Source of the DNA: Candidatus Electrothrix yaqonensis
GTDB lineage: Bacteria > Desulfobacterota > Desulfobulbia > Desulfobulbales > Desulfobulbaceae
DNA length: 32,000 bases
Reading direction: 5' to 3'
NCBI GenBank assembly: GCA_047651235.1
Contig: CP178758.1
Coordinates: forward strand, 1,860,001-1,892,000
Shown here piece after piece: positions 7,369 through 26,642 of this stretch (within the stretch, counting starts at the first letter, position 1; each line of letters starts with the position of its first letter). The notes under the pieces are model-generated. The model saw only the letters and a list, made by a program, of their open reading frames with translations. It did not search any database and had not been told where the DNA came from. The position numbers were made by a program, and so were the translations under genes.

Positions 7369-8943
7369 CTATCTTGCTCCTGCACCCTGCAGCACGACGA
7401 AAACTGTTTTAAACAGAATCCTGAAATCTTCCCAGAGGCTCCACTCCGCAATATACTGAAGATCCATATTCATCCATTCGTCAAATTCCACATCACTTCT
7501 GCCGCTGACCTGCCAGAGACCGGTAATGCCCGGTTTTACGCTGAAGCGGCGTCGATGCGCAGCTTCTCCGAAGCGCTCAAAATCCCTGATAGGCAGGGGC
7601 CTCGGCCCGACAATGCTCATATCGCCGATGAGCACATTGGCGAATTGAGGGATTTCATCCAGACTGGTTTTCCGCAGAATGTTGCCGATTTTTGTCACCC
7701 TCGGATCTTCAGTCATTTTAAAGGCCGCTCCATCGACCTCATTGTGCTTTTCCAGCTCTGCCTGAAGTTTTTCAGCATCCCGGATCATGGTTCTGAACTT
7801 GAATATTTTAAAGCGTCGTTTATTGAGCCCGATACGTTCCTGAACAAACAGAACAGGCCAGCCGTCCTGCAGCCAGATCAGGCCGGCCACAGTCAAAAAG
7901 ACAGGAGAAAGCATGACAAGTGCTGCCAGAGAAAAAATAATATCAACAATCCGTTTAATATCCCTGTGAAACTCTGGCTGATTCACAAAGTCGTAATCAA
8001 TCAGAAGATCATTCATATTATCCGGATGATAACGGGAATCAGCGGCTGAAGAATTGTAATCGGCAACAGTAATCTCCGAGAGATCGGGAACTCCCGCATC
8101 CTCCTGAAGATCAAAGAAATCATTGATCAGGCGGGTTCTGATTCCCTGCTCCTGGCAGCTTTTGATCAGCGTGAGAATCTTATCGTAAAAACTCCTGATC
8201 GGCAGAGTAATGAAAACTTCATCAACCCGGTTTTCAGAGATATATTTTTCAAACTCCTCTTCATCCAGGGAACAGATCATCGGAATGGGCAGGACTTCTC
8301 CTACTAGTTCTTTAAAATCACTGTGATTATCGGCATGATCAATATCCAGTATACTTCTAATATATTCTTCATCTATATCATCTGCAAATCCTATCAGAGA
8401 ATACCCTGAATTGGGCTGCATGAGTTCCTGAACAAGAGTAAGAGCCCGGACATTCTGCAGCCCCACAATCAGGGCATGATGCAGCTCTTTAGACCGGCGG
8501 TTTTTTTTTCTCCAGCGCAGCAGAGCAGCCAGCGGCATCAGACCTACGAAAGATGCTGCTAACAGGATCAGCCAGAAAAAAAAAGCAAAAAAAGAGTGCG
8601 GTTGATTGACTGAGAGAATGTCCGCCCCCAGAAGAAACAGCAATGCACCGACTGTTACAGAGCCGAATATTCTTTGTCCAAGGTCAACCCATTCCTCTTT
8701 TTCCAGAACAGCGAGCCTGTTCACTTTTGTACACAAGTTCAGGCGGTGCCAAAGGAGAAAGAGGATAAAGAATTTTCCGATTTCACATAAGGAAATCCTG
8801 ATATTAAACAGTGCGCTGATCTCCGGAAATTTGTTCCGGAGATAATATTCTCTGAGCAGGATAAAGAAAACAAGCGCTAAAATGGAATTGGTCCATACGA
8901 TAAGCCCTTCAAGCAGCGCTGTTTTGTAACTCGTTTTCTTCAT
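7369..8943 (-). CDS. Undecaprenyl-phosphate sugar phosphotransferase (WbaP/EpsB-type priming glycosyltransferase, Bac_transf domain)
   Basis: 524 aa. It has N-terminal TM helices, a central linker and a C-terminal catalytic domain with the motifs FKFRTM, DEIPQFANVLIGDMSIVGPRPL and KPGITGLWQVSGRS. Confidence 0.9.
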   Translation of the reverse strand: MKKTSYKTALLEGLIVWTNSILALVFFILLREYYLRNKFPEISALFNIRISLCEIGKFFILFLLWHRLNLCTKVNRLAVLEKEEWVDLGQRIFGSVTVGALLFLLGADILSVNQPHSFFAFFFWLILLAASFVGLMPLAALLRWRKKNRRSKELHHALIVGLQNVRALTLVQELMQPNSGYSLIGFADDIDEEYIRSILDIDHADNHSDFKELVGEVLPIPMICSLDEEEFEKYISENRVDEVFITLPIRSFYDKILTLIKSCQEQGIRTRLINDFFDLQEDAGVPDLSEITVADYNSSAADSRYHPDNMNDLLIDYDFVNQPEFHRDIKRIVDIIFSLAALVMLSPVFLTVAGLIWLQDGWPVLFVQERIGLNKRRFKIFKFRTMIRDAEKLQAELEKHNEVDGAAFKMTEDPRVTKIGNILRKTSLDEIPQFANVLIGDMSIVGPRPLPIRDFERFGEAAHRRRFSVKPGITGLWQVSGRSDVEFDEWMNMDLQYIAEWSLWEDFRILFKTVFVVLQGAGAR

Positions 8944-10754: not shown

Positions 10755-12374
<1,620 letters not shown>

Positions 12375-12400
12375 ACAGAAGGATTAAAACAGAAGGCGTT

Positions 12401-12424
12401 CCGGGAAATTCAGGGATTTCCCGG
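12401..12424. terminator. 9-bp perfect hairpin (CCGGGAAAT-tcaggg-ATTTCCCGG) between convergent genes
   Basis: Read directly from the sequence. It lies between the stop of the + strand activator (12374) and the stop of the - strand small membrane protein (12459). Neither side has a clear U-tract. Confidence 0.5.
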
Positions 12425-12458
12425 CGCAGTTGTCTGTCAGTCAGAGGCAGTCGTTGGT

Positions 12459-12704
12459 TTAAGCATTGCGTTTAAAAAAAATAATGATACCTGTCACGGT
12501 GACGGTGAGCAGACCCAGCCCTGCAATACACCCGATATAGGGCATAATAATTTCCCAGGTGTGTATAGAAACTAAAGACTCTTTTATGTCCTTACTGTAG
12601 ACCCCTGCTTTCCGGAACAGGAGTAGACAGCCTGAACAGGACAGGAGCAGGAAGAACGGGGCAAAGGTGATAGCGGTCAGTCTGTGCAGTTTTCTGATTT
12701 TCAT
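12459..12704 (-). CDS. Small two-TM membrane protein, PepSY-associated-TM-like
   Basis: 81 aa. The KLHRLTAITFAPFFLLL and IHTWEIIMPYIGCIAGLGLLTVTVTGIIIFF segments resemble the PepSY_TM helix pattern. It starts 20 nt downstream of the kinase gene. Confidence 0.5.
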   Translation of the reverse strand: MKIRKLHRLTAITFAPFFLLLSCSGCLLLFRKAGVYSKDIKESLVSIHTWEIIMPYIGCIAGLGLLTVTVTGIIIFFKRNA

Positions 12705-12723
12705 GAAACTCCTCCTTGCAATT

Positions 12724-14199
12724 TTATTTTAGAAAGAACAGAATAACTCCGTGTATAATGCGTGTAATAGACGGCTTGGCCTTGGCCGATGATTCTCCCA
12801 CCGCATCATGCGGCGGCAGGGTGACAGTGAAACAGGTTCCCCCGGATTCCACATTACGGACGGAGATATCACCCTGATGCGCTTGGATAATCGCCTTGGT
12901 TATGCTCAGGCCGAGGCCGGTTCCCTCTATCGTTTTCACATTCTCTGACCGGTAGAATTTGTTAAAGATCTGTTCAAGCGCGTCTTCGGGAATGCCGATG
13001 CCGGTATCCCGGACAGTCAGTTCCAACCGGTTTCCCAGGCAACGCAGAGAGACAGAAACCGAACCTTCGGGAGTATTATAATATACAGCATTCTCAAGAA
13101 GATTCGATATTGCTTCCGTCAGAGCATCTTTATCTCCTGATACTGTTACATCATCATTTTCCTCCCGAATAATTCTGATACGGTTTTCTTTTGCCAGAGG
13201 CGCGACAAGCTGTACAGCATTGTCAAGACACCAATTCAGAGAAATCGGGTGAGAGGCCGTGGACAGGATGCCCGAATCGATCCGGGCCAGAGTCAGCAAG
13301 CCGTTCACCTGCCGAAGCATGGTGTCGGACACATCCCTGACTTCCCGTAGACTGCCGGCATAGTCTTCCCCCGGGCGTTCCTTCATCAGGGCAATATCGC
13401 ATTCCGCCCGGATAACTGCCAGCGGGGTTTTCAGCTCATGAGCCGCATTGGCGATCAGCTCTTTTTCCGCCTCAAAGGCGGTCTGCAGGCGTGCCAGCAA
13501 GGCGTTGAACCGTTCTGCAAAAACCTGCAGCTCACAGGCAAAACCGTTCGGCCCGACTCTCTCGCCCAAGTTTTTATGGGTAATCTGTTCCAGGGCTGCG
13601 GAAAAAGCAGTCAGTGGTCGGAGAGCATGGGATGATATGGCGTATCCGATAATTCCGGTCAGCACAACAAAAAACGGCGTAAGGAGATAAAAAAATCTTT
13701 CCAGCGTGTTGAGCATGGCAATGGTTTCCGTCAGCGTCTCGGCAACCCGTACGGAAACCACTTTGTTCTTAAATTCAAAATCATGTCGGAGCACGAGAAG
13801 AGGCTCCCTGTCCGGTCCGGTTGTCCGGTATATCCATTCCCTGTTCTCCTTATCGTATGATTCCGGTGAACCGGAGATCAGATTGAACATATGGGGCTGC
13901 AGAGAGGGTGAGGTCAGGTGCAGGGTGTCTTCTATATATATCTGATAATAATGTCCTGAATTTGGAATAGAATATTCACCCTGAGCGACTTCGGCAAGCT
14001 CGATTTCGACAAAATCTCCGTGCGCATGGATCAGGCCTATCATGATCTGCAGCTTGGAGTGCAGAATATTGTCAATTGAATGAAAGGCAACATGCTCGAA
14101 TTTCTGCAGCAGAACAAAGTCAAGAACAAGCACCATACCTGAACCGAAGAGAAAAATCGAGAGCAGCAGTCGTCCTTTTATTGAACCTCCGGATTTCAT
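12724..14199 (-). CDS. Sensor histidine kinase (two TM helices, periplasmic domain, HAMP, HisKA, HATPase_c)
   Basis: H-box NAAHELKTPLAVI, N-box LLENAVYYN, G1 VRDTGIGIP, G2 GTGLGLSI. Two TM segments flank a loop of about 150 aa. A strong SD (GGAGGAGGA) precedes the ATG at 14199. Confidence 0.9.
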   Translation of the reverse strand: MKSGGSIKGRLLLSIFLFGSGMVLVLDFVLLQKFEHVAFHSIDNILHSKLQIMIGLIHAHGDFVEIELAEVAQGEYSIPNSGHYYQIYIEDTLHLTSPSLQPHMFNLISGSPESYDKENREWIYRTTGPDREPLLVLRHDFEFKNKVVSVRVAETLTETIAMLNTLERFFYLLTPFFVVLTGIIGYAISSHALRPLTAFSAALEQITHKNLGERVGPNGFACELQVFAERFNALLARLQTAFEAEKELIANAAHELKTPLAVIRAECDIALMKERPGEDYAGSLREVRDVSDTMLRQVNGLLTLARIDSGILSTASHPISLNWCLDNAVQLVAPLAKENRIRIIREENDDVTVSGDKDALTEAISNLLENAVYYNTPEGSVSVSLRCLGNRLELTVRDTGIGIPEDALEQIFNKFYRSENVKTIEGTGLGLSITKAIIQAHQGDISVRNVESGGTCFTVTLPPHDAVGESSAKAKPSITRIIHGVILFFLK

Positions 14200-14302
14200 T
14201 CCTCCTCCTTCGCGATGCAGCAGTCTGCTTCTTTTATCGAGATCAGGTTGCGGTTGCTTCAGCTTTAATCATGAGTTGTCCTCTTTTCTACAGTACCACA
14301 AA

Positions 14303-14336
14303 AAGATGAACAGAAGATGAACGGTAATTTTTTTTG
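14303..14336 (-). promoter_or_regulatory. Operator copy 2: 11-bp-phased direct repeat (minus strand CAAAAAAAATTACCGTTCATCTTCTGTTCATCTT) upstream of the kinase gene
   Basis: On the plus strand, AAGATGAACA at 14303-14312 and AAGATGAACG at 14314-14323 are followed by GTAATTTTTTTTG. It is near-identical to the element at 18091-18124. It lies about 104 nt upstream of the kinase ATG. Confidence 0.6.
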
Positions 14337-14434
14337 CAGAACAAAATACGGGAGAAGGACGAGAGAAGGGCGGGAGAGGGCTGAACAGGAAAAAGTGAGA
14401 AATACGTGTCGTCAAAAAGAGACATCGCTCAAGG

Positions 14435-14462
14435 TACCGGGATACACAGATGTATCCCGGTA
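14435..14462 (-). terminator. 11-bp perfect hairpin (TACCGGGATAC-acagat-GTATCCCGGTA) just downstream of the DUF5666-like gene
   Basis: Read directly. It begins 19 nt after the stop at 14481 on the minus strand. A T-run follows only after about 15 nt, so a terminator or RNA-stabilising role is uncertain. Confidence 0.45.
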
Positions 14463-14480
14463 TGTGCGGTTTTAGCGATT

Positions 14481-15083
14481 TTACTTCGTCGCTTTGATTT
14501 CAAACTCGGAAGCGGTAAAAACACCGTCAATACGGCTTCCTTTGGCTGTGATCTTCGAGCCGACCCCGGCTTTGGATTGATCTCCTTTGATTACAGTTTG
14601 TTCAGTAATCTTGATTTTCCTGCCCTCCACTTTCCAGATACCGTAGGGCCAGTTGAGCGGGGGCATCTCATCCACTGTCCCGGTAATCTCGCCGCTCAGG
14701 CCCGGATCAGTTCCTTCCTGCATCTGCATATGGTAGGCTTTAAATTTGCTGCCTGAGAGCCATTTACCTTCGATCTGAATCGAGGAACCGACTTCGGGCG
14801 TTCCTTTTATATCAGTGGATTCCGACACGATGACCTCGCTGCCGTCCACAATCAACGGGTCTGTAGAACCCACCACGCCGCGAAAGAAGACTTCCTCTCT
14901 TTCACTGGAGAAGTCGCCCTGGTACATCATATGCGTCTTCTCTTCGCTGAGTCCTTTCTGCCCTGCCGCCTGTACAGATGTTAACGGCAGCAGGAGCATC
15001 ATGACGGATACAACCAGAAACAAGACACGGCATTGATTACGGTGACTACGGAATAGTGTGTTGGATGATTGCAGAGTGTACAT
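14481..15083 (-). CDS. Secreted protein with two DUF5666-like beta-rich repeats
   Basis: 200 aa with a signal peptide (VLFLVVSVMMLLLPLTSVQA/AGQ). The repeats are FRGVVGSTDPLIVDGSEVIVSESTDIKGTPEVGSSIQIEGKW and ITGTVDEM...WKVEGRKIKITEQTVIKGDQSKAGVGSKITAKG. A strong SD (AGGAGG, 7-nt spacer) precedes the start. Confidence 0.55.
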   Translation of the reverse strand: MYTLQSSNTLFRSHRNQCRVLFLVVSVMMLLLPLTSVQAAGQKGLSEEKTHMMYQGDFSSEREEVFFRGVVGSTDPLIVDGSEVIVSESTDIKGTPEVGSSIQIEGKWLSGSKFKAYHMQMQEGTDPGLSGEITGTVDEMPPLNWPYGIWKVEGRKIKITEQTVIKGDQSKAGVGSKITAKGSRIDGVFTASEFEIKATK

Positions 15084-15125
15084 ACATTTACCTCCTTCGG
15101 TATAATTTATTGCATTATTGTGTTA

Positions 15126-15572
15126 TTATTTAATCCCGTAAAAACTACGGAATCTGTTGTCTGAAAGCAGAATTTCTTCATGCCCTTCATGTTCAGAGAT
15201 CTGCTGTTCTGGTTGTTTATGCAGCGGACTGAGTCTATCATGATATCGATCAAACAGCTCATTCAAAAAAGAATGTCTGGGAAATTCATCATGCAGGCTC
15301 AGGGTGCAGACAATAAACATCATCGGCAGCAATGCGCTGACTGCTCCGGCCAGCGGAAAATACCACGAGGCCTGGTACGGCGCTTTCCTGTCACGTACGA
15401 TGTGCCTGATGAAACAGCCGACGAAGAAACCTCCTGCCAGTGCCGCTATGATGAGCGGAACAAGGTCTATCGAGGAGAACATGATGCCGACATGCAGGAT
15501 AGCAACAGAACTGAGCGAACCTGCAGGAACAACTAGGCAGCAGCCGAAAAGTCGTTTTACTGAGGATTTCAT
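15126..15572 (-). CDS. Small integral membrane protein with a His-rich cytoplasmic tail (unknown function)
   Basis: I trimmed the start to the Met at 15572, which is preceded by CAGGAGATCAGT (AGGAG, 6-nt spacer). About 3-4 hydrophobic helices are followed by HDEFPRH...YHDRLSPLH...SEHEGHEE. Confidence 0.5.
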   Translation of the reverse strand: MKSSVKRLFGCCLVVPAGSLSSVAILHVGIMFSSIDLVPLIIAALAGGFFVGCFIRHIVRDRKAPYQASWYFPLAGAVSALLPMMFIVCTLSLHDEFPRHSFLNELFDRYHDRLSPLHKQPEQQISEHEGHEEILLSDNRFRSFYGIK

Positions 15573-15694
15573 ACTGATCTCCTGAGCGTGTATATTTTTG
15601 AACCGGAAACGTAATATACCGCTCTCCCTTACAATTTTGATGCCCAATTGACAATCTGTTTTTTTTAGTCGGCTCCGGGAATGAACCGAATCAG

Positions 15695-15739
15695 ATAAAA
15701 AAGCTGTAAGAGCCGCCTTGTTCCCGGCAATTCTTACAG
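15695..15739 (-). terminator. Rho-independent terminator after the Met-rich gene pair
   Basis: The minus strand reads CTGTAAGA-att-GCCG-ggaacaagg-CGGC-TCTTACAG followed by CTTTTTTAT. That gives 12 bp of pairing with a small bulge and then a T-run. It lies 29 nt downstream of the stop at 15768. Confidence 0.7.
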
Positions 15740-15767
15740 TTCCTACATTTTTCTTGCTGCAGAAAAA

Positions 15768-16091
15768 TTAACGGATTGTCATGCGTTCCGTCTGCTGGGC
15801 TTTTATCTGAGCGCGAATTTTCTCCATCATGACAGGCTGAACTATAGGCTGGATACTATCCTGCATGAAATTTTGGGGAACACGCTCGGCCATCATTTTG
15901 GTGCGCATTTCATTCTGCAGCAGCAAAGCAGCGAAATTCTGCTTGATCGTCTCCTGCTGCATCCGGTTTAATAACTGATCAACCGTTGCTTCAATGGTCC
16001 TGGTATCTATCTGCGTTGCAGCAGAAGCAGAGCCGGACATAATTAAACCGGCAGTCAGTCCGAAGACGAGCCGTATTATCATCTTTTTCAT
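15768..16091 (-). CDS. Secreted Met/Gln-rich small protein (paralog of the 218-aa protein upstream)
   Basis: 107 aa with a signal peptide ending in SGSASA/AT. By my count, 8 Met in about 83 mature residues. It shares ...R..M.ER....N......QPVMM with the neighbouring gene product. Confidence 0.6.
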   Translation of the reverse strand: MKKMIIRLVFGLTAGLIMSGSASAATQIDTRTIEATVDQLLNRMQQETIKQNFAALLLQNEMRTKMMAERVPQNFMQDSIQPIVQPVMMEKIRAQIKAQQTERMTIR

Positions 16092-16230
16092 TTTCCTTCC
16101 TCTATTTGGTGTTAACTTTAACGTTAACAGGCCGCCCCCTTCTGGAGGTCAGTTCAGTCAATTCCCTCAGCAGAGCAGAATAACAGTAAGGACTGCAATC
16201 AACAGAATGCCGAGCAGGATTATCATCAGA

Positions 16231-16887
16231 TCAGCAGTTCGGCTGGCCGTCGTTTTTATCAGAGCAGGTCTCTCTGTTCAGCTCCCTGTTCAGAATTGAT
16301 TTGACTATTGCAATCCTCCTGTTTCTTTCAGTAACATTGATTGCCGTTGAGGTTTCTGTTGAATTGAGGATATTGCTCATCATGACCGGCTGCATTCCGG
16401 CACGCAGCGGATTGTCCTTCATGCGCTCCTGCATCATCCTGCCCTGCACGACACGCGCCACAGCCGGATCAGAAGATATCTCCTGAATGGTCGTTTTAAT
16501 CTTTTCCGCCATCTTCCGATTAACAGCCGCCTGGGTTTCCGCATCAAGTACATCTGTCTGCGCTGAAACGACAAATTCGATCGGGGTCATGGCTCTGCAC
16601 TCCATGCACGTTTCGATGACTGAGGCGCTTTTTCTTGCAGCCGTGCTTTTTTTCACGGCTTCGCTGGCTGTGGCCATCATTCTCTGCTGTATTTCGCTGA
16701 ATGCGGTCTGGTCGGGAAAAACTTTCAGCACAACACTGTTTGCCTTTTTTTCCATTGTCTGTGCTGCAAGGTTCCGCGTTTCGGCATCAAATGTCTGTGC
16801 TGATGCTGAACCAGCTGAACCGGTGGAAAAAAGAATGCCTGCTGCCATCATCGCGATAAAATTTCTACCTGTTTTCATCTTGTTCAC
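16231..16887 (-). CDS. Secreted Met-rich protein with an internally duplicated domain and a CxxC motif (unknown function)
   Basis: 218 aa with a signal peptide (AAGILFSTGSAGSASA/QT). Two related segments begin FDAETRNLAAQTMEKK... and LDAETQAAVNRKMAEK.... The motifs QQRMMATA, QGRMMQERM and GMQPVMM are present. A CMEC sits between the repeats, and the C-terminal sequence is CSDKNDGQPNC. Confidence 0.6.
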   Translation of the reverse strand: MNKMKTGRNFIAMMAAGILFSTGSAGSASAQTFDAETRNLAAQTMEKKANSVVLKVFPDQTAFSEIQQRMMATASEAVKKSTAARKSASVIETCMECRAMTPIEFVVSAQTDVLDAETQAAVNRKMAEKIKTTIQEISSDPAVARVVQGRMMQERMKDNPLRAGMQPVMMSNILNSTETSTAINVTERNRRIAIVKSILNRELNRETCSDKNDGQPNC

Positions 16888-16950
16888 TCCTTTATTTCTA
16901 TTAATAAGGGTTAATCCTTGTCATTGTTTATACCTTAGTGTAACAAAGGC

Positions 16951-16972
16951 AGTATGAACGGCAGATGAAACA
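16951..16972 (-). promoter_or_regulatory. Operator copy 3 (degenerate): ATGAAC-N5-ATGAAA, phased by 11 bp, upstream of the Met-rich gene
   Basis: The plus strand reads agtATGAACggcagATGAAAcag. The minus strand reads CTGTTTCATCTGCCGTTCATACT and is preceded by GCAAAAACTTCCT, the same A-tract/TTCC context as copies 1 and 2. It lies about 65 nt upstream of the ATG at 16887, and a TATAAA follows downstream. Confidence 0.45.
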
Positions 16973-17297
16973 GAGGAAGTTTTTGCAAAAAAATAAAAAA
17001 TTTTTGTTTTTTACTCCAACCTCTTGTTTATAAAGACAAAATTAAAGTATCGACGTGCAGCTCCCTGTCCAGAACGGTACAAAAAATTGTATAACAGGGG
17101 GGGGTGGATACTTTTTACTCGGTGCTGCCGGTTAAACGGTACGCCGCTTTATCCGGCAGACCGACTGCATCAGGACGCTCAGGAAGTCAAGAAGAGGTCA
17201 GAGAATCTGCCAGACCATAGATGCAAGATGTAATCCGGAAAAGAAGAAATGAACGGAAAGGAGCCTGGTTAGACGGAACAGGGCGGGGAAAAGAAAT

Positions 17298-17336
17298 GGA
17301 GGATGAGCTGTTTTTCTTCCGGTATGCGCATCCTCC
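17298..17336 (-). terminator. Possible terminator after the response-regulator gene (8-bp stem GGAGGATG/CATCCTCC, 23-nt loop, then a T-rich tail on the minus strand)
   Basis: Read directly. The large loop makes this weak. Confidence 0.3.
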
Positions 17337-17341
17337 GGCCT

Positions 17342-18019
17342 TCATTCCTCCCCCCTGGGAATGTAATACCCTGCACCCCGTTTGGTGAGGATCAGCTTGC
17401 GGTCGTGCCCTTGATCTATTTTTCTGCGCAGTTTGTTGATATAGACGTCTATGATATTGCTGTCCAGATCGAAATTGATGTCGTAGACGTGTTCGGAGAA
17501 TTCCGTCCTGCTGATGACTCTGCCCCGGTTCAGGGCAAGATATTCAAACACGGCATATTCTTTGGCGGAAAGGATAATATCTTGCCCGCTCCGTGTGACC
17601 GTTTTGGCATCCAGGTCAAGACAGAGATCCCCGATATGCAGCAGTGAAGCAGGCTGTCCTTTGTTCCGCCTGATCACTGCCGTGAGACGGGCAAGGAGTT
17701 CGGCAAAGTCAAAGGGCTTGGGAATATAGTCGTCCGCCCCGATGTTCAGCCCTTTGACCCGGCTCTCCACTTCTGTTCTCGCCGTGAGCATGAGCACCGG
17801 CACCTCAATACCCTTTTTCCGCAAGGCGTCAAGCACGGCAAAGCCATCCATTTTTGGCAGCATGACGTCCAACAGAACAGCGTCATAGGGAAAGTGCTCG
17901 GCCATATACAGCCCCTCTTCACCGTCAAAACACAGATCAACAGCGTAGGAATGCTCTTCAAGACCTTTTTTCAGAAGCGCGGCCAGCCTCTGCTCATCTT
18001 CAACAATAAGAACTTTCAT
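17342..18019 (-). CDS. OmpR/PhoB-family response regulator (REC plus winged-helix Trans_reg_C)
   Basis: 225 aa. Motifs: MKVLIVEDE, phospho-acceptor context LLDVMLPKMDG, KPF, and the C-terminal wHTH (LSAKEYAVFEYLALNRGRVISR...VYINKLRRKID...TKRGAGYYI). Confidence 0.92.
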   Translation of the reverse strand: MKVLIVEDEQRLAALLKKGLEEHSYAVDLCFDGEEGLYMAEHFPYDAVLLDVMLPKMDGFAVLDALRKKGIEVPVLMLTARTEVESRVKGLNIGADDYIPKPFDFAELLARLTAVIRRNKGQPASLLHIGDLCLDLDAKTVTRSGQDIILSAKEYAVFEYLALNRGRVISRTEFSEHVYDINFDLDSNIIDVYINKLRRKIDQGHDRKLILTKRGAGYYIPRGEE

Positions 18020-18090
18020 TGCCGTTCGCTTTCTCCTTTGCTGATGTGTAGCAGAAAAATGCTTCGTTGCTCTTTCTTTTTACTGGAAGT

Positions 18091-18124
18091 AAGATGAACA
18101 AAAGATGAACAGGAATTTTTTTTG
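18091..18124 (-). promoter_or_regulatory. Operator copy 1: 11-bp-phased perfect direct repeat (minus strand CAAAAAAAATTCCTGTTCATCTTTTGTTCATCTT) upstream of the response-regulator gene
   Basis: On the plus strand, AAGATGAACA at 18091-18100 and again at 18102-18111 are followed by GGAATTTTTTTTG. It lies 72 nt upstream of the regulator ATG (18019). Direct repeats one helical turn apart are the usual architecture of OmpR/PhoB-family sites. Confidence 0.6.
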
Positions 18125-19648
18125 TCAGTCTTCCGTTGATCCGGATTTTTCCGCTTTCTGTTGATCGGAAAAAAAGTTGACCCAAGATGAAGTTTTTTCC
18201 CGGCCCCAGTCTTTCGGTGGAATATGAGGACCGGCAGCAAGATCGGCAAGTTGTGTCCGGGGGTTCAGGCGGGTATAAAGACGCACCCAGAAACAGAGGC
18301 GTTCCGGGAAGACCTCACATCGCCCTTTATTGCTGCCGCCGCATGGCCCGTTGACCAGCCGTTTGGGGCAATGCCATTGCGGGCAGAGAAAGGCGGACTG
18401 GGCAAGGGTGCAGTCACCGCACATCTGGCAGTTGAAAAACATCCGTTTCACGGTTTTTTCCGTCCACAGCAGGAGATTGAGCCGATACTGCTTCCGGGCG
18501 CAGAACAGGCAGAAACGGGCAAACAGTCTACGGCCGGGACTCCAGCGGGCAAAGAGCAGGGCATGAGCGAGATAATGGATCCGGGCCGAACCCTGCCCGC
18601 TGCCCGGGTGCAGCGGTTTTTCAACAGGTTCTGCACCCCTCCGGCTGTTCTGATAAAAATGCCATGTGCCCTGAATTGGGAAGTCATTGTCCGGAAGCGA
18701 GAAAAGAGATTTTTTTTCCAGCTCTTCAACCCGGTCCAGCACATAAGCAATGTCCTGAAAGCGCAGGCCGATGCCGCCCAAGTGTACTCCTCGGTAACCG
18801 TATTTTTTCAGACGGGCGATCATGGACGCTGCCCTGTCCAGACGTGCTCTGCGTGCCCTGTCGGCTCCGGCAGCAGCTTCCGCCTCCATGCGGGCCAGCA
18901 GTTCCCCGGAAAACAGAATGCCGGGAAGTTTTCCGGCAGCCAATGCCCGCGCCAGAGGCAGTGAGGGAATGAAGACATTGGCAAGCACAGGCAGCTCAAC
19001 AGGCTGTCGGCGGAGGAAAATCGTCAGTTCTTCAAATTTGCGCATATCAAAGCCGACCTGGGTGATAATAAAATCGGCACCGGCCTTGATCTTGCGCAGC
19101 AGTCTGGCATACTGCCAGACCTGTTCCGCCTCAGTGTATTTAAACGGGGAGACAATACATCCTTTCAGAATGACCGGGGTGGGGTACTGGTCCTGATGCT
19201 TTCCGCTCCTGTTCGGGTAACGGCCGTTCTCCATATCTGTGAGGAGCTGCAGAGTCTGCATGGTGTCCAGATCATAGACCGGCTTACCCTGTCCGTAATA
19301 TCCGCGATTGGGAAAGTCGCCCCCCAGTACGAGCAGGGAGCGCAGGCGTAGGCGCTGGTAAAGATAGATATGGCTGCCTATTTGGCTTCGGTTCTTATCC
19401 TTCAGGGAAAAATGAATGAGCGGTTCGATTCCGATTCTCAGCAGTTCCGTCCCGATGGCCACCGGCGCCAGGGACGGATTGCCGCCGGGATTATCCGTAA
19501 TGGACAGGGCCTTGATTCTGCCGTCCGCCTTTGCCTGTTCGGCAAATCGAAGCAGTCGGTTCACATGCTTGCCGGCAAACCCCTGACGGGGTACCAGCTC
19601 ATAGGTGATGGTGAACTTATCCGGGTCGTTCAGGGCGGTCCGCAGCAT
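18125..19648 (-). CDS. metF: Methylenetetrahydrofolate reductase fused to a C-terminal MetV-like Cys-rich (MTHFR_C) domain
   Basis: 507 aa. The N-terminal ~300 aa resemble an MTHFR TIM barrel (YELVPRQG..., ITDNPGG, ADFIITQ). The C-terminal part carries CQMCGDCTLAQSAFLCPQWHCPKRLVNGPCGGS, which matches the MetV/MTHFR_C pattern. Confidence 0.7.
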   Translation of the reverse strand: MLRTALNDPDKFTITYELVPRQGFAGKHVNRLLRFAEQAKADGRIKALSITDNPGGNPSLAPVAIGTELLRIGIEPLIHFSLKDKNRSQIGSHIYLYQRLRLRSLLVLGGDFPNRGYYGQGKPVYDLDTMQTLQLLTDMENGRYPNRSGKHQDQYPTPVILKGCIVSPFKYTEAEQVWQYARLLRKIKAGADFIITQVGFDMRKFEELTIFLRRQPVELPVLANVFIPSLPLARALAAGKLPGILFSGELLARMEAEAAAGADRARRARLDRAASMIARLKKYGYRGVHLGGIGLRFQDIAYVLDRVEELEKKSLFSLPDNDFPIQGTWHFYQNSRRGAEPVEKPLHPGSGQGSARIHYLAHALLFARWSPGRRLFARFCLFCARKQYRLNLLLWTEKTVKRMFFNCQMCGDCTLAQSAFLCPQWHCPKRLVNGPCGGSNKGRCEVFPERLCFWVRLYTRLNPRTQLADLAAGPHIPPKDWGREKTSSWVNFFSDQQKAEKSGSTED

Positions 19649-19684: not shown

Positions 19685-20206
19685 TTACGGAAAGACAATT
19701 TCAACCTCTGTGTTGCTTAACTTCCTGACCCGGATATTTTCTTTGAAATATTTTCCGACCCCCTTGATGAGACCGACCAGAAAATCAATCAGCCCCCTGG
19801 GAGATTTATACGTCATGATCAGAGTCCTGCTGTCCCTCCATTCATAGTCGAATCTGGGAGGGTGGGCGTTCGGGATAGTCGAGGTCACGGTTTCATGAAT
19901 CTGATCCATGCTAAGGAGTAACTCCTTAGCCGAGGTTGCCTCCTGCAGATAGGCTCCGTATATTCTGGGAGCATAGACATTGACCCAGTAGTCACCAAAA
20001 GCGTCAGCTGCCTGCAACGGAGTAATGTTCAGGACCTTGCAGACAGAGGCAACAACCTTGAGCACGGTCTTATCTTCAACCATATTGGTTGCGGAAAAGA
20101 TGGCATGTCTGTCCAATCCGGCATCTTCCAAGGCATCTTCCCATTTGTCCCTTCCGAAGTTATCTTTGACCAGTCCTGCCAGACAGGTTGCTATGACGCC
20201 TTTCAT
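19685..20206 (-). CDS. Stand-alone H-NOX (haem-NO/oxygen binding) sensor protein
   Basis: I trimmed the start to the Met at 20206, which is preceded by AAAGGAGGAGTC. The product is 173 aa. It has an MKGVI N-terminus, candidate proximal His104 (MDQIHETV), Pro117 at His+13, and the haem-propionate motif Y133-x-S135-x-R137 (YKSPR). Confidence 0.85.
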   Translation of the reverse strand: MKGVIATCLAGLVKDNFGRDKWEDALEDAGLDRHAIFSATNMVEDKTVLKVVASVCKVLNITPLQAADAFGDYWVNVYAPRIYGAYLQEATSAKELLLSMDQIHETVTSTIPNAHPPRFDYEWRDSRTLIMTYKSPRGLIDFLVGLIKGVGKYFKENIRVRKLSNTEVEIVFP

Positions 20207-20243
20207 GACTCCTCCTTTTTGCTTCAGGTACCCGATGCAGCAC

Positions 20244-20268
20244 AGCATCAGACGGATAACCTGATGCT
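20244..20268 (-). other. Perfect 8-bp inverted repeat (AGCATCAG-N9-CTGATGCT) overlapping the stop codon of the sigma54 regulator gene and preceding H-NOX
   Basis: Read directly. It sits in the 60-bp gap between the two co-directional genes. On the minus strand no U-tract follows. Confidence 0.3.
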
Positions 20269-21658
20269 ATTTCTTTTTGCGCTGCAGATTGTATTTCTTC
20301 ATCTTGTACTGCAGCAGACTCTTGGTGATCCCCAGTTTTTCGGCCGCTCTCGCCTGCACGTTATTGGCCTCTTCCAGGGCCTGACGGACCAGTTTCTCTT
20401 CAATGCCGTTCAGTACTTCGGAAAGGGTCAGGCCCTCCGGGATAAACTGGGCCAGCTCAAGACCGGAACTCCATTCCTGAAAACCCGGCATCTGGGTGCT
20501 GTCGGGCTGCACATCGTCTGCCGCGATACAGCTGTCGCTGCAGAGGATCGCGGCCCGTTCAATGGTATTTTCCAGTTCCCTGATATTGCCTTCCCAGGGC
20601 AGAGTGACCAGCAGCCGCATGGCCTCCGGTGAAATCTCAATTTTTTCCTGTCCGAGCTGTTCTGCGTTTTTCTGGAGAAAGTAATGAACCAAGGGAGGAA
20701 TATCGTCCAGCCGTTCCCGCAGCGGCGGCATGTGGATGTGGATGACATTGAGGCGGTAGAACAGGTCATTTCTGAATTTACCCTGTTCCACCTCGTCTTT
20801 CAGATCTTTGTTGGTGGCGGTGAGGATACGGACGTCTATGCCGATGGTTGTATTGCCGCCCACCCGTTCAAAACTCCGTTCCTGGAGAACCCGCAGCAGT
20901 TTGGCCTGAAGCGAAGGAGCCATTTCCCCTATTTCGTCAAGAAACAGGGTGCCGGTGTCTGCCAGCTCAAAACGGCCCTTGCGCATGGCAGCCGCATCGG
21001 TAAAAGCGCCTTTTTCATGGCCGAACAGCTCGCTTTCCAGCAGATGCGGAGAGAGCGCGGCGCAGTTGACCGAGATAAACGGTGCCTCCCTGCGCTCACT
21101 CAGATCGTGGATGGCACGGGCGACCAGTTCCTTGCCGGTGCCGGATTCCCCGGTGATCAGGACAGAGGACGGCGTGGGCGCAACCTTTTCAATCAGCCGG
21201 TAGACCTCCAGCATCCTGGAATTTTTACCGATCATGCCGCTGAAGCCGGACTTGAACGTTGCCTCGCTGCGCAGCCGTTTGATTTCTCGGACTAGGCCGT
21301 AATGCTCCACCGCCTTCTGGGCGGCAGCCAGCAGCTCCTCGTTGGAAAAAGGCTTGGCAAGGTAGGTGAAAGCGCCGAGATGCATGGCCTCAACCGCTTT
21401 GCCGACCTCGGCATAGGCTGTGACCAGAATGACCGGGAGCTGCCGGTTGAACTCTTTTATTTTACTGAGGAGTTCGATGCCGTCCATACCGGGCATCTTC
21501 ATGTCGGTGATCACCAGATCAAGGTCGGCTTCCCGCACGGTTCGCAGACCGGCATGACCGCTGTCCGCAGTAAACACCTCATAGCCCTCATCACGCAAAA
21601 GTTCAGAAAGGACAATCAGATAATTCGGTTCGTCGTCAACAACAAGGATAGAGTGCAT
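20267..21658 (-). CDS. NtrC-family sigma54-dependent response regulator (REC, AAA+, HTH_8) with a non-canonical GAFTDA loop
   Basis: I trimmed the start to the Met at 21658 (MHSILVVDDEPNY). Motifs: [28 protein letters not shown] (not GAFTGA), LFLDEIGE, and a C-terminal HTH (RAAEKLGITKSLLQYKMKKY). Confidence 0.9.
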   Translation of the reverse strand: MHSILVVDDEPNYLIVLSELLRDEGYEVFTADSGHAGLRTVREADLDLVITDMKMPGMDGIELLSKIKEFNRQLPVILVTAYAEVGKAVEAMHLGAFTYLAKPFSNEELLAAAQKAVEHYGLVREIKRLRSEATFKSGFSGMIGKNSRMLEVYRLIEKVAPTPSSVLITGESGTGKELVARAIHDLSERREAPFISVNCAALSPHLLESELFGHEKGAFTDAAAMRKGRFELADTGTLFLDEIGEMAPSLQAKLLRVLQERSFERVGGNTTIGIDVRILTATNKDLKDEVEQGKFRNDLFYRLNVIHIHMPPLRERLDDIPPLVHYFLQKNAEQLGQEKIEISPEAMRLLVTLPWEGNIRELENTIERAAILCSDSCIAADDVQPDSTQMPGFQEWSSGLELAQFIPEGLTLSEVLNGIEEKLVRQALEEANNVQARAAEKLGITKSLLQYKMKKYNLQRKKK

Positions 21659-21680
21659 AATTTTCAGAAAGGATAAAGGT

Positions 21681-22613
21681 TTACAGGGGCGGAACAGAGT
21701 GAACGTCTTCCGGTTGTCCGGCCGGATGCAGTTGCGGAAAACCGCTTCTGCCGCTGCCGAATTTACTCCTATCAAAATATTGCAATCGCTCAAGGAGTTC
21801 AACCATTATTGAGTCCGGCGGACAGATACCGCCCTCTCCGCCCGCAAAAACATGACCGTGCCTGCTGCCGTGATAATCACTGCCTCCAGTGCAGAGCAGG
21901 TTGTACTTTCCTGCAACCTCCTGTAATCGCTTTCTCATTTTTCTGCTGTGCGCAGGGTAATAGACTTCTACGCCGTCAAGTTTTTTTTCTTTCAGCTCCT
22001 GAATAATAGACGGTTGTTTTCTCATGCTGTTGTCAAGCATCCCCGGATGGGCAAGCACAGCCAAGCCTCCGGCCTGATGAATAACTGCAATGGCTTCTGC
22101 TGCCGAACAGGTGCGGCGCGGACACCAGGCCGGTTTATTTCTGCCGAGATAAAGGGAAAAAGCCTGCTGGACACTGCGCACATATCCTTTTTTTTGCAGC
22201 ACCCCGGCGATGTGGGGCCTGCCGGTTTGGCCGCATGAGGACATCTGCGCGACTTCCTGTTCACTGACGGCAAATCCCATCTCGGCGAGCTTGGCGATAA
22301 TTTTTTGGTTGCGCGCAATACGGCCTTCCTGGAGCCGGGCCAGCCATTCGAGGAGGTCCGGGTGCTCCGGGTCAAAGCCGTATCCCAGAATATGCAGAGA
22401 GTACGCCCCATGACGGGCGCTGATTTCAAGCCCGCTGACCACTGTTACACCGTGCTCACGACCGAGCCGCATGGCCTCCCGGACGCCCTCAACCGTATCA
22501 TGATCTGTCAGGGCAAAGCCCTGCAGCCTGCGGGCAGCAGCCATGCTGATCAGCTCGGCCGGACTGGCGGTGCCGTCAGAGTAGACAGAATGGGTATGCA
22601 GATCAACACACAT
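21681..22613 (-). CDS. PHP-domain metal-dependent phosphoesterase (TrpH/YciV-like)
   Basis: Motifs: MCVDLHTHSVYSDGT, AHPG, GGSDYHG. 310 aa. Confidence 0.8.
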   Translation of the reverse strand: MCVDLHTHSVYSDGTASPAELISMAAARRLQGFALTDHDTVEGVREAMRLGREHGVTVVSGLEISARHGAYSLHILGYGFDPEHPDLLEWLARLQEGRIARNQKIIAKLAEMGFAVSEQEVAQMSSCGQTGRPHIAGVLQKKGYVRSVQQAFSLYLGRNKPAWCPRRTCSAAEAIAVIHQAGGLAVLAHPGMLDNSMRKQPSIIQELKEKKLDGVEVYYPAHSRKMRKRLQEVAGKYNLLCTGGSDYHGSRHGHVFAGGEGGICPPDSIMVELLERLQYFDRSKFGSGRSGFPQLHPAGQPEDVHSVPPL

Positions 22614-22745: not shown

Positions 22746-23741
22746 TTAATCAAACGGTTGCGGACGCGGTGTTTTCTCGGTTGACGGCGGCAGAATGGGC
22801 AGCAGGAATGTCGGCTGCTCACCGGTCAATGTCTTGAGAAACGCAACAATCTGCGCGTTCTGCTCATCAGTGAATTTCGCGCCCAACTGCAGGCGTCCCA
22901 TGATATCAACTGCCTCGGTCAGGGTTTCCGCCTCGCCGTCATGGAAGTACGGATAGGTCAGCTCAACATTGCGCAGCGTGGGAACCTTGAAGGAAAAGCG
23001 ATCCTCGTCCTTGCCGGTCACAGCCTTCCGGCCTTCTGCAGGGCTCTTTGCCTCGTATTCCTCCATAACGCCCATTTTCTGGAACGAGCTGCCGCCCATC
23101 GCGGTTCCATAATGACAGGAGATGCAGCCGGAATCTTGAAACAGTTTGTATCCGGTCAGTTCCTCCTCGGTCAGGGCATCTTTGTCGCCCAGCAGCCATT
23201 GATCAAAACGGGAGTTCGGGGTAACCAAGGTTTTTTCAAATTCGGCAATCGCACCGGTCACCTGATCGATCTCGACTTTATCTGTACCAAAGACCTGTTT
23301 GAACTCGGTCACATAGGTAGGAATGGATTCCAGCACACCAATTGCCAGATCATGGGTAAAGGCCATCTCACCGGGGTTGGCAATAGGGCCGCCCGCTTGA
23401 TCCTTCAGGGTTTCAGCCCGTCCGTCCCAAAACTGGACAAAGTTCAGGCTGGAGTTGAGTACGGTCGGCGCGTTGATAGGCCCTTTCTGCCAATTATGCC
23501 CGATGGAAGTTTTCAGGTTATCCGTACCGCCCATGCTCAAGTTATGGCAGGAATTGCAGGAAATAAATCCTGATTTGGACATCCGGGGATCAAAAAAGAG
23601 TTTTTTGCCTAATTCGGCCTTGGCCAAATTGATTTCCTTTACCGGTGCAATGGGTTCGATGGGTTCCGCCGCTGTTGTGCTGCCTGCCGCAGCCAGAACT
23701 GAGACAAACAGCAACGAACACACTCCTGCTTTTACCTGCAT
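22746..23741 (-). CDS. Di-haem cytochrome c peroxidase (CCP/MauG family), periplasmic
   Basis: It has a signal peptide and two CxxCH sites (CNSCHN, CISCHYG). The FWDGRA, PTLRNV and YFHDG signatures are present. 331 aa. Confidence 0.9.
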   Translation of the reverse strand: MQVKAGVCSLLFVSVLAAAGSTTAAEPIEPIAPVKEINLAKAELGKKLFFDPRMSKSGFISCNSCHNLSMGGTDNLKTSIGHNWQKGPINAPTVLNSSLNFVQFWDGRAETLKDQAGGPIANPGEMAFTHDLAIGVLESIPTYVTEFKQVFGTDKVEIDQVTGAIAEFEKTLVTPNSRFDQWLLGDKDALTEEELTGYKLFQDSGCISCHYGTAMGGSSFQKMGVMEEYEAKSPAEGRKAVTGKDEDRFSFKVPTLRNVELTYPYFHDGEAETLTEAVDIMGRLQLGAKFTDEQNAQIVAFLKTLTGEQPTFLLPILPPSTEKTPRPQPFD

Positions 23742-26165: not shown

Positions 26166-26642
26166 TCATAACGGTTTGCTCGTATAAGTAAGATCTGCTC
26201 CTATAAAATCCGTTCCTCTAACATTTGCTCCTTTAAAATTAGCCCTTCTAAGATCTGCTCCTTTAAAGTCCGCTCCCATCAGGTTCGCCCCTCTAAGGTC
26301 TGTTTTTTCAAACTTTGCTTTTCGAAAATTTGCTCCATAAAAATCCTGTCGATAAAGAATGTATTCAGACAAATCCAAAAATCCTAACAAATGCAAAGCA
26401 AACATATTTTCCGGTCCTTGCCTCTGCCCTCTCAATCGTGCAATCCATTCTCCAAAATCAATATCTGATTCCAGATTTAATCTGGAAACTTGCTCTGTAA
26501 TTTCCGCGATACTGTAGTGAATGGCAAGCAAAGCTGTTTCCGCATTTCGGGCCAACCGAAGATGCTCCTTAAAGCCTTTGCTCAAGAACTCATCAGGAAA
26601 GGGTAGCCCTTGATTGATGGTGTAACTGAGCAGCCCACGCAC
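26166..26642 (-). CDS. Pentapeptide-repeat protein (separate ORF or frameshifted C-terminal module of the NACHT protein)
   Basis: 158 aa from a GTG start at 26642. The C-terminal half is tandem A(D/N)LXX-type repeats: GANFRKAKFEKTDLRGANLMGADFKGADLRRANFKGANVRGTDFIGADL. The start overlaps the upstream stop by 1 nt (TAGTG). Confidence 0.8.
   Translation of the reverse strand: MRGLLSYTINQGLPFPDEFLSKGFKEHLRLARNAETALLAIHYSIAEITEQVSRLNLESDIDFGEWIARLRGQRQGPENMFALHLLGFLDLSEYILYRQDFYGANFRKAKFEKTDLRGANLMGADFKGADLRRANFKGANVRGTDFIGADLTYTSKPL

Follow-up and report, generated by a model that had tools for sequence, protein, structure and literature searches.

A putative autoregulated OmpR-type regulon with direct-repeat operators in the cable bacterium Candidatus Electrothrix sp. 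YB6

Gene content and direct-repeat boxes of the locus

In this study, we analyzed a 32-kb stretch of DNA (hereafter the window) from the cable bacterium Candidatus Electrothrix sp. YB6. YB6 has a closed genome of 3.74 Mb and has been described as the earliest-branching Electrothrix (PMC12093952). The minus strand of this window encodes, in order, an MTHFR-like protein, an OmpR-type response regulator, two Met-rich proteins of 215 and 107 amino acids (aa), a 148-aa membrane protein, a 200-aa DUF5666 protein, a sensor histidine kinase and an 81-aa protein. Three copies of a direct-repeat box were found upstream of the regulator gene, the Met-rich genes and the kinase gene, and they are probably binding sites for the cluster's own regulator in a positively autoregulated two-component regulon. 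The cluster had been described earlier from its letters and open reading frames (the original prediction), and those gene calls were upheld by domain matches for the regulator, the kinase and the DUF5666 protein, with the PepSY_TM-like 81-aa protein falling just under the cut-off. The boxes and the two signaling genes are as follows:

18091..18124, minus strand: box 1, an A8 tract followed by CTGTTCATCTT/TTGTTCATCTT, upstream of the regulator gene; matrix score 30.9 bits
14303..14336, minus strand: box 2, an A8 tract followed by CCGTTCATCTT/CTGTTCATCTT, upstream of the kinase gene; matrix score 32.9 bits
16951..16986, minus strand: box 3, degenerate TTTCATCTGCC/GTTCATACT after a shorter A-tract, 5' of the Met-rich genes; matrix score 23.0 bits
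17342..18019, minus strand: OmpR-type response regulator, 225 aa, with Response_reg and Trans_reg_C domains and the recognition helix DVYINKLRRK
12724..14199, minus strand: sensor histidine kinase, 491 aa, with HisKA and HATPase_c domains

The minus strand contains the three elements as originally quoted, except that the 36-nucleotide (nt) string of the third copy occupies 16951-16986 and not 16951-16972. The core of box 1 (GTTCATCTTTTGTTCAT) lies at 18094-18110, and the 3' end of the box is 72 nt from the ATG of the regulator gene (18019). The core of box 2 lies at 14306-14322, with a distance of 104 nt to the kinase ATG (14199), and that of box 3 (TTTCATCTGCCGTTCAT) at 16954-16970, which is 64 nt from a GTG at 16887 and 73 nt from a better-placed ATG at 16878. 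Over the A-tract and the box, copies 1 and 2 are identical at 31/34 nt, and their flanks are unrelated.

The two half-sites of each pair start 11 base pairs (bp) apart. The proposed direct-repeat geometry of one helical turn was borne out, as TTCAT-N6-TTCAT occurs in all three copies and its 11-bp phasing is kept in orthologous loci. Exact TTCAT-N6-TTCAT is present three times in the window (0.17 expected), and GTTCAT-N5-GTTCAT with at most one mismatch likewise gives three matches (0.10 expected), a number reached in 0/100 shuffles. All three boxes lie between genes on the minus strand and have the same orientation as the genes that follow them. A weight matrix of 24 columns was built for the box on 13 sites, and its null set consisted of loci L013-L092, which contain unrelated kinases of 28-38% identity. 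Apart from the three boxes, no site of ≥14 bits was found in the window by this matrix, and no site of ≥23 bits was found in 1.19 Mb of unrelated bacterial DNA.

Conservation of the box in other loci

Phylogenetic footprinting, one of the checks proposed with the original prediction, revealed that the box is kept in three other Electrothrix loci and in two Electronema-like loci. Upstream of the regulator operon, it was detected in E. scaldis (L005 8821), GW3-4 (L007 8986) and ENA contig 4319 (L009 8837), and upstream of Met-rich orthologues at L005 8038, L009 8450 and L004 1452; the latter promoters contain three or four half-sites in 11-bp phase. The two Electronema-like loci (L011 and L093) have three boxes each, upstream of DUF5666 and Tyr-rich genes. 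In other cable bacteria, these promoters have diverged apart from the box, the A-tract before it and a -10-like element after it. In an alignment of five autoregulatory promoters, conservation is likewise confined to the A-tract, the box and, farther downstream, a GGTACTGT-like element, and box 2 together with the first ~25 nt of its leader resembles the autoregulatory promoter of other Electrothrix.

The usual order in Electrothrix is the box, a gene for a small secreted charged-repeat protein, the regulator, the kinase and the 81-aa protein, with the Met-rich pair oriented divergently. Three distant orthologous loci (L094, L095 and L100) have the same box architecture with TTAAT as the half-site (CTTTAATCTTCCTTTAAT and variants, CTTTAAT-N4-CTTTAAT), and there the boxes precede a DUF5666 gene heading an operon that ends in the regulator and kinase genes. 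In distant relatives, the box-controlled operon encodes a DUF5666 protein, a cytochrome b (Ni_hydr_CYTB), multihaem cytochromes c and an unnamed membrane protein of ~200 aa with conserved His residues. This cytochrome cargo is located at L094 7019-9271, L095 3831-7287, and L011 1109-4640 and 8715-9317. The ancestral cargo of the system looks like an electron-transfer module.

Several minor features of these loci were also recorded. The gene before the regulator (L005 8920-9240, L009 8933-9238, L007 9078-9254, L011 5969-6295 and 6674-7006) has a small secreted product, which in Electrothrix consists almost wholly of charged repeats of the ERYERGERYE type and in Electronema is rich in Tyr, Asn and His with HERYEY ends; several DUF5666 proteins begin with similar His/Glu/Tyr tails. 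The charged-repeat gene was not found in the YB6 window. In E. scaldis, a UPF0236-type transposase-like gene (L005 5973-7292) lies between two Met-rich genes, and a gene for a Cys-rich 84-aa protein (8347-8601) has a box of its own (8712-8735).

Promoter geometry

Each of the three boxes is followed at a short distance by a putative -10-like element:

18077..18082, minus strand: candidate -10-like TAAAAA, 11 nt after the second half-site of box 1; predicted transcription start ~18070
16937..16942, minus strand: candidate -10-like TACACT after TGt, 11 nt past the second half-site of box 3; predicted start ~16930
14290..14295, minus strand: candidate -10-like TACTGT after TGg (extended -10), 10 nt past the second half-site of box 2; predicted start ~14283

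The element of the regulator promoter is weak because its final T is missing. Across 20 sites, a TAnnnT hexamer is present 10-11 nt downstream of the second half-site in 15, mostly as TGnTAnnnT. Given this fixed distance, the box would occupy the -35 position and span roughly -40 to -19. A scan with the sigma-70 consensus detected none of the three promoters, and no recognisable -35 hexamer was found in them, which fits activator-dependent promoters that lack a -35 element.

Co-variation of the box with the regulator

The regulator carries both domains that characterize the OmpR/PhoB family (PF00072, 100.5 bits; PF00486, 78.5 bits). Its best named family is TIGR01387 (249.4 bits), under the curated cut-off of 279.2. 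The regulators of the TTAAT loci have Y or F at the variable position of DVYIN-x-LR, whereas all TTCAT-linked orthologues have K or R there. This position aligns with R201 of PhoB, a base-contacting residue in the PhoB-DNA structure. At the same helix position, E. coli TorR, which recognizes TTCAT boxes, has R, and BasR, with TTAAT-type boxes, has N. The co-variation between box and recognition helix is thus suggestive of this regulator as the binding protein, and it falls short of proof because it reflects a single evolutionary switch.

As an independent link between box and regulator, a scan of metagenomes for the exact 17-mer GTTCATCTTYYGTTCAT returned 80 loci, at least seven of which have an OmpR-type regulator with 45-54% identity within ~600 bp. 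A random site would be expected near such a regulator in <1% of cases, by a rough estimate from regulator gene density, and the observed share is far above this value. Two of these 17-mer-linked regulators pass the RppA/NrsR equivalog cut-off of 250 bits (257.6 and 251.2 bits).

Among unrelated metagenome contigs, the 17-mer is located, for example, at L148 726-742 (with genes at 8-685, 883-1473 and 1569-2696), L125 4592-4608 and L143 565-581. On one such contig, its neighbors are an RppA-like regulator, an HtrA-type protease and a PepSY-domain protein encoded divergently; on others, it separates regulator-kinase pairs of the Firmicute type from FtsX/ABC transporter genes. In a marine metagenome contig (L123 3510-3570), the 11-bp unit GTTCATCTTTT is repeated head to tail at least six times.

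Interpretation and alternative explanations

Taken together, the boxes are best explained as binding sites for the cluster's own OmpR-type regulator in a positively autoregulated two-component regulon with class II activation (probability about 0.78). The sites, their conservation, their geometry and their co-variation with the regulator are direct observations, and binding, activation as opposed to repression, and the signal are what we infer from them. The original prediction, which had tied the regulator, the kinase and the secreted proteins into one autoregulated regulon through OmpR/PhoB-type operators, is supported by the footprinting, the fixed promoter geometry and the box/helix co-variation. 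According to this model, the periplasmic domain of the kinase would detect a signal, leading to phosphorylation of the regulator. A regulator dimer would then sit at the usual place of the -35 element and recruit RNA polymerase to promoters without a usable -35. In this manner, the regulator, once phosphorylated, would activate transcription of its own gene, of the genes for the kinase and its small membrane partner, and of those for the two Met-rich proteins; the genes for the His-rich membrane protein and the DUF5666 protein would be included as well, probably through read-through.

Several points weigh against this model. Copy 3 is weak (23 bits), the regulator promoter has a poor -10-like element, and the genes for the membrane protein and the DUF5666 protein lack a box and are preceded by a terminator-like hairpin. 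The frequency of the box in YB6 was counted within the 32-kb window. The co-variation is essentially one switch between two clades, and K or R at the helix position is common in OmpR-family regulators having other half-sites. The 17-mer also stands beside other regulator subfamilies, such as Firmicute-type loci of a response regulator, histidine kinase and ABC transporter (33-38% identity), and a paralogous regulator could therefore share these sites or compete for them.

Three other explanations were considered. Some OmpR-family regulators repress transcription from positions that overlap the -35 element, and the box does overlap the place of polymerase binding, so the regulator in one phosphorylation state might block RNA polymerase at -35 until the signal relieves repression. 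Such repressor operators are unlikely here, as the promoters have no recognisable -35 hexamer, none of them being found by the sigma-70 scan, and the conserved upstream A-tract fits recruitment of polymerase. Moreover, a fixed spacing of 10-11 nt to an extended -10 matches promoters that depend on an activator, such as those of PhoB and BqsR (PMC4358008). The boxes might instead be bound by a paralogous OmpR-type regulator of YB6, or shared by several, such that the cluster's own regulator would not be the main controller. The occurrence of the identical 17-mer beside regulators of several subfamilies in metagenomes speaks for this idea; however, in Electrothrix, in Electronema and in more distant relatives alike, the box accompanies this particular pair of regulator and kinase, and it shifts to TTAAT together with the recognition helix, which makes a paralogue a distinctly improbable controller.

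The near-identity of copies 1 and 2 amid unrelated flanks, in a cluster that is clearly rearranged, would also be expected if the repeats were by-products of rearrangement in YB6 (duplicated promoter fragments or scars of mobile elements) without regulatory function. This explanation is largely refuted by the conservation of the box in species without the rearrangement and before different genes, and we regard it as very improbable. In addition, copy 3 matches the boxes upstream of Met-rich orthologues, and no transposase or terminal repeats were found nearby in the window.

Separation of the regulator and kinase genes in YB6

The regulator and kinase genes are adjacent, and usually overlapping, in 8/8 other complete loci. 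The separation of the two genes in YB6, which the original prediction had pointed out, is real, and it is a derived rearrangement specific to YB6 and no feature of the system, as indicated by these adjacent pairs and by a duplicated 23-nt junction:

17332..17354, minus strand: direct repeat copy A, 23 nt, GGGGGAGGAATGAAGGCCGGAGG, comprising the regulator stop codon and a putative relic of the old overlapping kinase start
14186..14208, minus strand: direct repeat copy B, 23 nt, GGAGGAGGAATGAAATCCGGAGG, spanning the kinase start codon

The two copies are identical at 20/23 positions, with a local alignment score of 31 compared with 13.6 ± 2.3 (maximum 26) in 500 shuffles. The repeat looks like an insertion scar in an ancestral overlapping regulator/kinase junction. 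In the simplest reading of the split, an ancestral operon (box, small secreted protein, regulator, kinase and 81-aa protein) would have been divided in YB6 when the cargo block, together with a copy of the promoter, was inserted into this overlapping junction. Both halves of the operon would carry a box because the promoter copy came with the cargo block, and the separation is therefore a peculiarity of YB6 rather than a design feature. The 52-codon open reading frame that follows the regulator gene starts with MKAGG, an echo of the MKSGG of the kinase.

The kinase and its 81-aa partner

The best named family of the kinase is TIGR01386 (209.2 bits), under the curated cut-off of 292.55. Its orthologues share 64-75% identity in Electrothrix, ~48% in Electronema and ~40-45% in Nitrospirota-type genomes. 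In an alignment of 15 sequences, down to 40% identity, the invariant residues of the periplasmic domain are H47, H58, E67-x-x-E70 and P79-x-S-G-H-Y-Y85. This sensor domain is unlike any solved or named one, and a PDB sequence search with it gave no match below E 0.3, that is, no solved relative. The kinase gene is followed by the last gene of the cluster:

12459..12704, minus strand: two-helix membrane protein, 81 aa, PepSY_TM-like; located 3' of the kinase gene in 4/4 Electrothrix species examined

The 81-aa proteins of Electrothrix share 73-86% identity. With PepSY_TM (PF03929), the YB6 protein scores 28.4 bits against a cut-off of 28.8 and covers 28/295 profile positions, so that the similarity amounts to a resemblance only.

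Cargo proteins, transcription units and the candidate signal

The remaining genes of the cluster and its hairpins are listed below:

16231..16878, minus strand: secreted Met-rich protein, 215 aa, with an invariant T-C-M-E-C (CxxC) motif and a C-terminal Cys pair in most members
15768..16091, minus strand: secreted Met-rich protein of 107 aa (10% Met), distantly paralogous to the 215-aa protein in the C-terminal half of the latter
15126..15572, minus strand: membrane protein, 148 aa, with a His-rich C-terminal tail and no Pfam family
14481..15083, minus strand: secreted DUF5666 protein, 200 aa (PF18914, 41 bits against a cut-off of 27)
15697..15739, minus strand: terminator-like hairpin (15704-15739) with a U6 run (15697-15702), -18.3 kcal/mol, z -2.6
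14435..14462, minus strand: perfect 12-bp hairpin after the DUF5666 gene, without a U tract, -23.7 kcal/mol, z -5.5
12396..12427, minus strand: hairpin 3' of the last gene of the cluster, -18.4 kcal/mol, z -4.1

The family of the 215-aa Met-rich protein is tiny (five word-based matches; 17 representatives among 1.84 billion), and its AlphaFold model is all-helical and unusable, with a predicted local distance difference test (pLDDT) score of 40. The model of the DUF5666 protein contains two small beta-barrels (pLDDT 70.7), whose matches to oligonucleotide/oligosaccharide-binding (OB) folds, including CusF, are weak and none of them significant. No statement on function was found in the DUF5666 literature. 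YB6 also encodes, outside the window, a 134-aa paralogue of the C-terminal DUF5666 barrel (P0133, ACL93V_11450).

Both the terminator-like hairpin at 15704-15739 and the hairpin at 14435-14462, on which the original prediction had based a partition of the cluster into units, are real. The partition is reasonable in general; the unit of the membrane protein and the DUF5666 protein, however, has no box of its own in YB6, and transcripts probably extend into it through the hairpin at 15704-15739. Before the membrane-protein gene (15573-15767), no box-like element was found; this region contains a single GGTTCAT and no matrix match of ≥14 bits. In GW3-4, the homologous membrane-protein/DUF5666 pair lies ~420 nt downstream of a box array, the membrane protein (L007 12774-13154) being 54% identical to that of YB6, and the Met-rich gene has decayed to a short remnant. 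This arrangement suggests an ancestral unit of the box, the Met-rich genes, the membrane protein and the DUF5666 protein. The remnant in GW3-4 (L007 13375-13482, minus strand) comprises ~32 codons and is signal-peptide-like, and the Met-rich genes have seemingly been lost there.

As to the signal, our leading guess, a tentative one, is a periplasmic metal ion, because of the family resemblance of the signaling proteins, the composition of the cargo and the invariant His and Glu residues of the sensor. The metal or envelope stress named in the original prediction is likewise a guess, backed by the family resemblance and the cargo composition. The signal may otherwise be an oxidant, a redox cue or a general cue from the envelope. 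No resistance-nodulation-division (RND) pump, P-type ATPase or multicopper oxidase was found in the cluster, the 32-kb window or the orthologous loci. A bolder idea, to which we give little credence, is that the kinase family could represent a new periplasmic metal/redox sensor that has been rewired in cable bacteria to periplasmic proteins restricted to their lineage (OB-fold-like ones, those rich in Met and CxxC, and those with charged Tyr/His repeats), which might buffer or deliver a metal (Ni, Fe or Cu) for the periplasmic conductive-fibre machinery, or protect it.

Comparison with known systems

The nearest relatives of the regulon are the heavy-metal regulators CusR, CopR and RppA/NrsR. 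TTCAT direct repeats have been proposed as the CopR site of Synechocystis, and they are also found upstream of mntC and in the region from nrsRS to nrsBACD (PMC4182526); therefore, this half-site has already been tied to metal-responsive regulators of this branch. The Synechocystis systems CopRS (copMRS, copBAC) and NrsRS/RppAB resemble that of YB6 in the OmpR-type regulator, in the TTCAT direct repeats as putative operator and in autoregulation, which is predicted for YB6. CopRS is also similar in having a gene for a small secreted protein before the regulator-kinase pair (copM in Synechocystis; in other Electrothrix, the gene of the charged-repeat protein), and the metagenome regulators above the RppA cut-off adjoin the exact 17-mer found here. 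On the other hand, the reported spacing in CopRS/NrsRS is N4-5 in contrast to N6 here, the YB6 regulator scores 184.4 bits with RppA/NrsR (NF041734; cut-off 250), and the YB6 cluster contains neither RND nor P-type ATPase efflux genes and has a sensor domain unrelated to the named ones.

CusRS/CopRS/HprRS (TIGR01387/TIGR01386) are the best-scoring named families for the YB6 regulator and kinase, both of which fall below the cut-offs. As in CusRS-type systems, the cargo proteins are periplasmic and have a high content of Met, Cys and His, and the weak PDB matches of the DUF5666 protein include CusF; however, the CusF match is not significant (E ~0.02), the metal ligands of CusF are not conserved in the DUF5666 protein, and YB6 has no efflux pump or multicopper oxidase at this locus. 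Membership in the CusR family was rejected, since no CusR-type palindrome, in the form commonly known, was found in the window.

BqsR binds TTAAG-N6-TTAAG overlapping the -35 element (PMC4358008). Like the pho box of PhoB and the BqsR box, the YB6 box is a tandem of half-sites with 11-bp phasing, and it would likewise stand in for the -35 at a set spacing from the -10, but the half-site sequences differ, and the YB6 regulator is not closest to PhoB, PmrA or QseB. The periplasmic ExxE motif of the YB6 kinase recalls those by which BqsS (RExxE) and PmrB (HExxE) sense iron, although it is not preceded by R or H. Like BqsRS, the YB6 system has a small membrane/periplasmic partner encoded beside the kinase (PMC12714742), which in YB6 resembles PepSY_TM and not the PepSY domain.

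The E. coli tor boxes include CTGTTCATAT and CCGTTCATCC (PMC9239176), half-sites nearly the same as CTGTTCATCTT and CCGTTCATCTT of YB6. Nevertheless, membership in the TorR system was rejected: tor boxes 1 and 2 of E. coli torC are phased by 10 bp instead of 11, TorR is 30% identical to the YB6 regulator, and no TorS-type hybrid kinase, TorT or trimethylamine N-oxide reductase is present among the genes. The CopR site of C. glutamicum (TGAAGATTTnnTGAAGATTT, PMC3140484) was also rejected, as it shares only the 11-bp period. No paper treating this particular regulator/kinase family was found.

The mechanism proposed here is a textbook one, and the value of the analysis lies in annotation and a testable hypothesis, not in a new principle. 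What is new is an uncharacterised regulon of the OmpR type, putatively autoregulated through a direct-repeat operator of class II, along with a rearrangement specific to YB6. Cable bacteria are not yet genetically manipulable and their regulation is almost unknown; YB6 is the one species with a clonal culture and a closed genome, and the circuit there would come with a defined operator, a predicted promoter architecture and a short list of target genes. The putative targets are periplasmic proteins almost restricted to cable bacteria, and the same signaling pair appears to control cytochromes in relatives; identification of the signal would therefore inform how metal or redox stress is handled in a compartment with nickel-containing wires.

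Neighboring genes

An Rfam search of positions 12000-18600 gave no meaningful match. Farther along the minus strand of the window, genes for a di-haem cytochrome c peroxidase (CCP_MauG, 22746-23741) and a NACHT-domain NTPase (26642-28702) were found, neither of which has a box. The MTHFR-like protein (18125-19648, minus strand) has 507 aa and a Cys-rich C-terminal DUF5981 domain, and the stop codon of its gene directly precedes the A-tract of box 1. Just upstream of this gene sits a pair formed by an H-NOX (HNOB) haem-NO/O2-binding gene and an adjoining gene for a sigma-54-dependent response regulator (19685-20248 and 20267-21802, minus strand).

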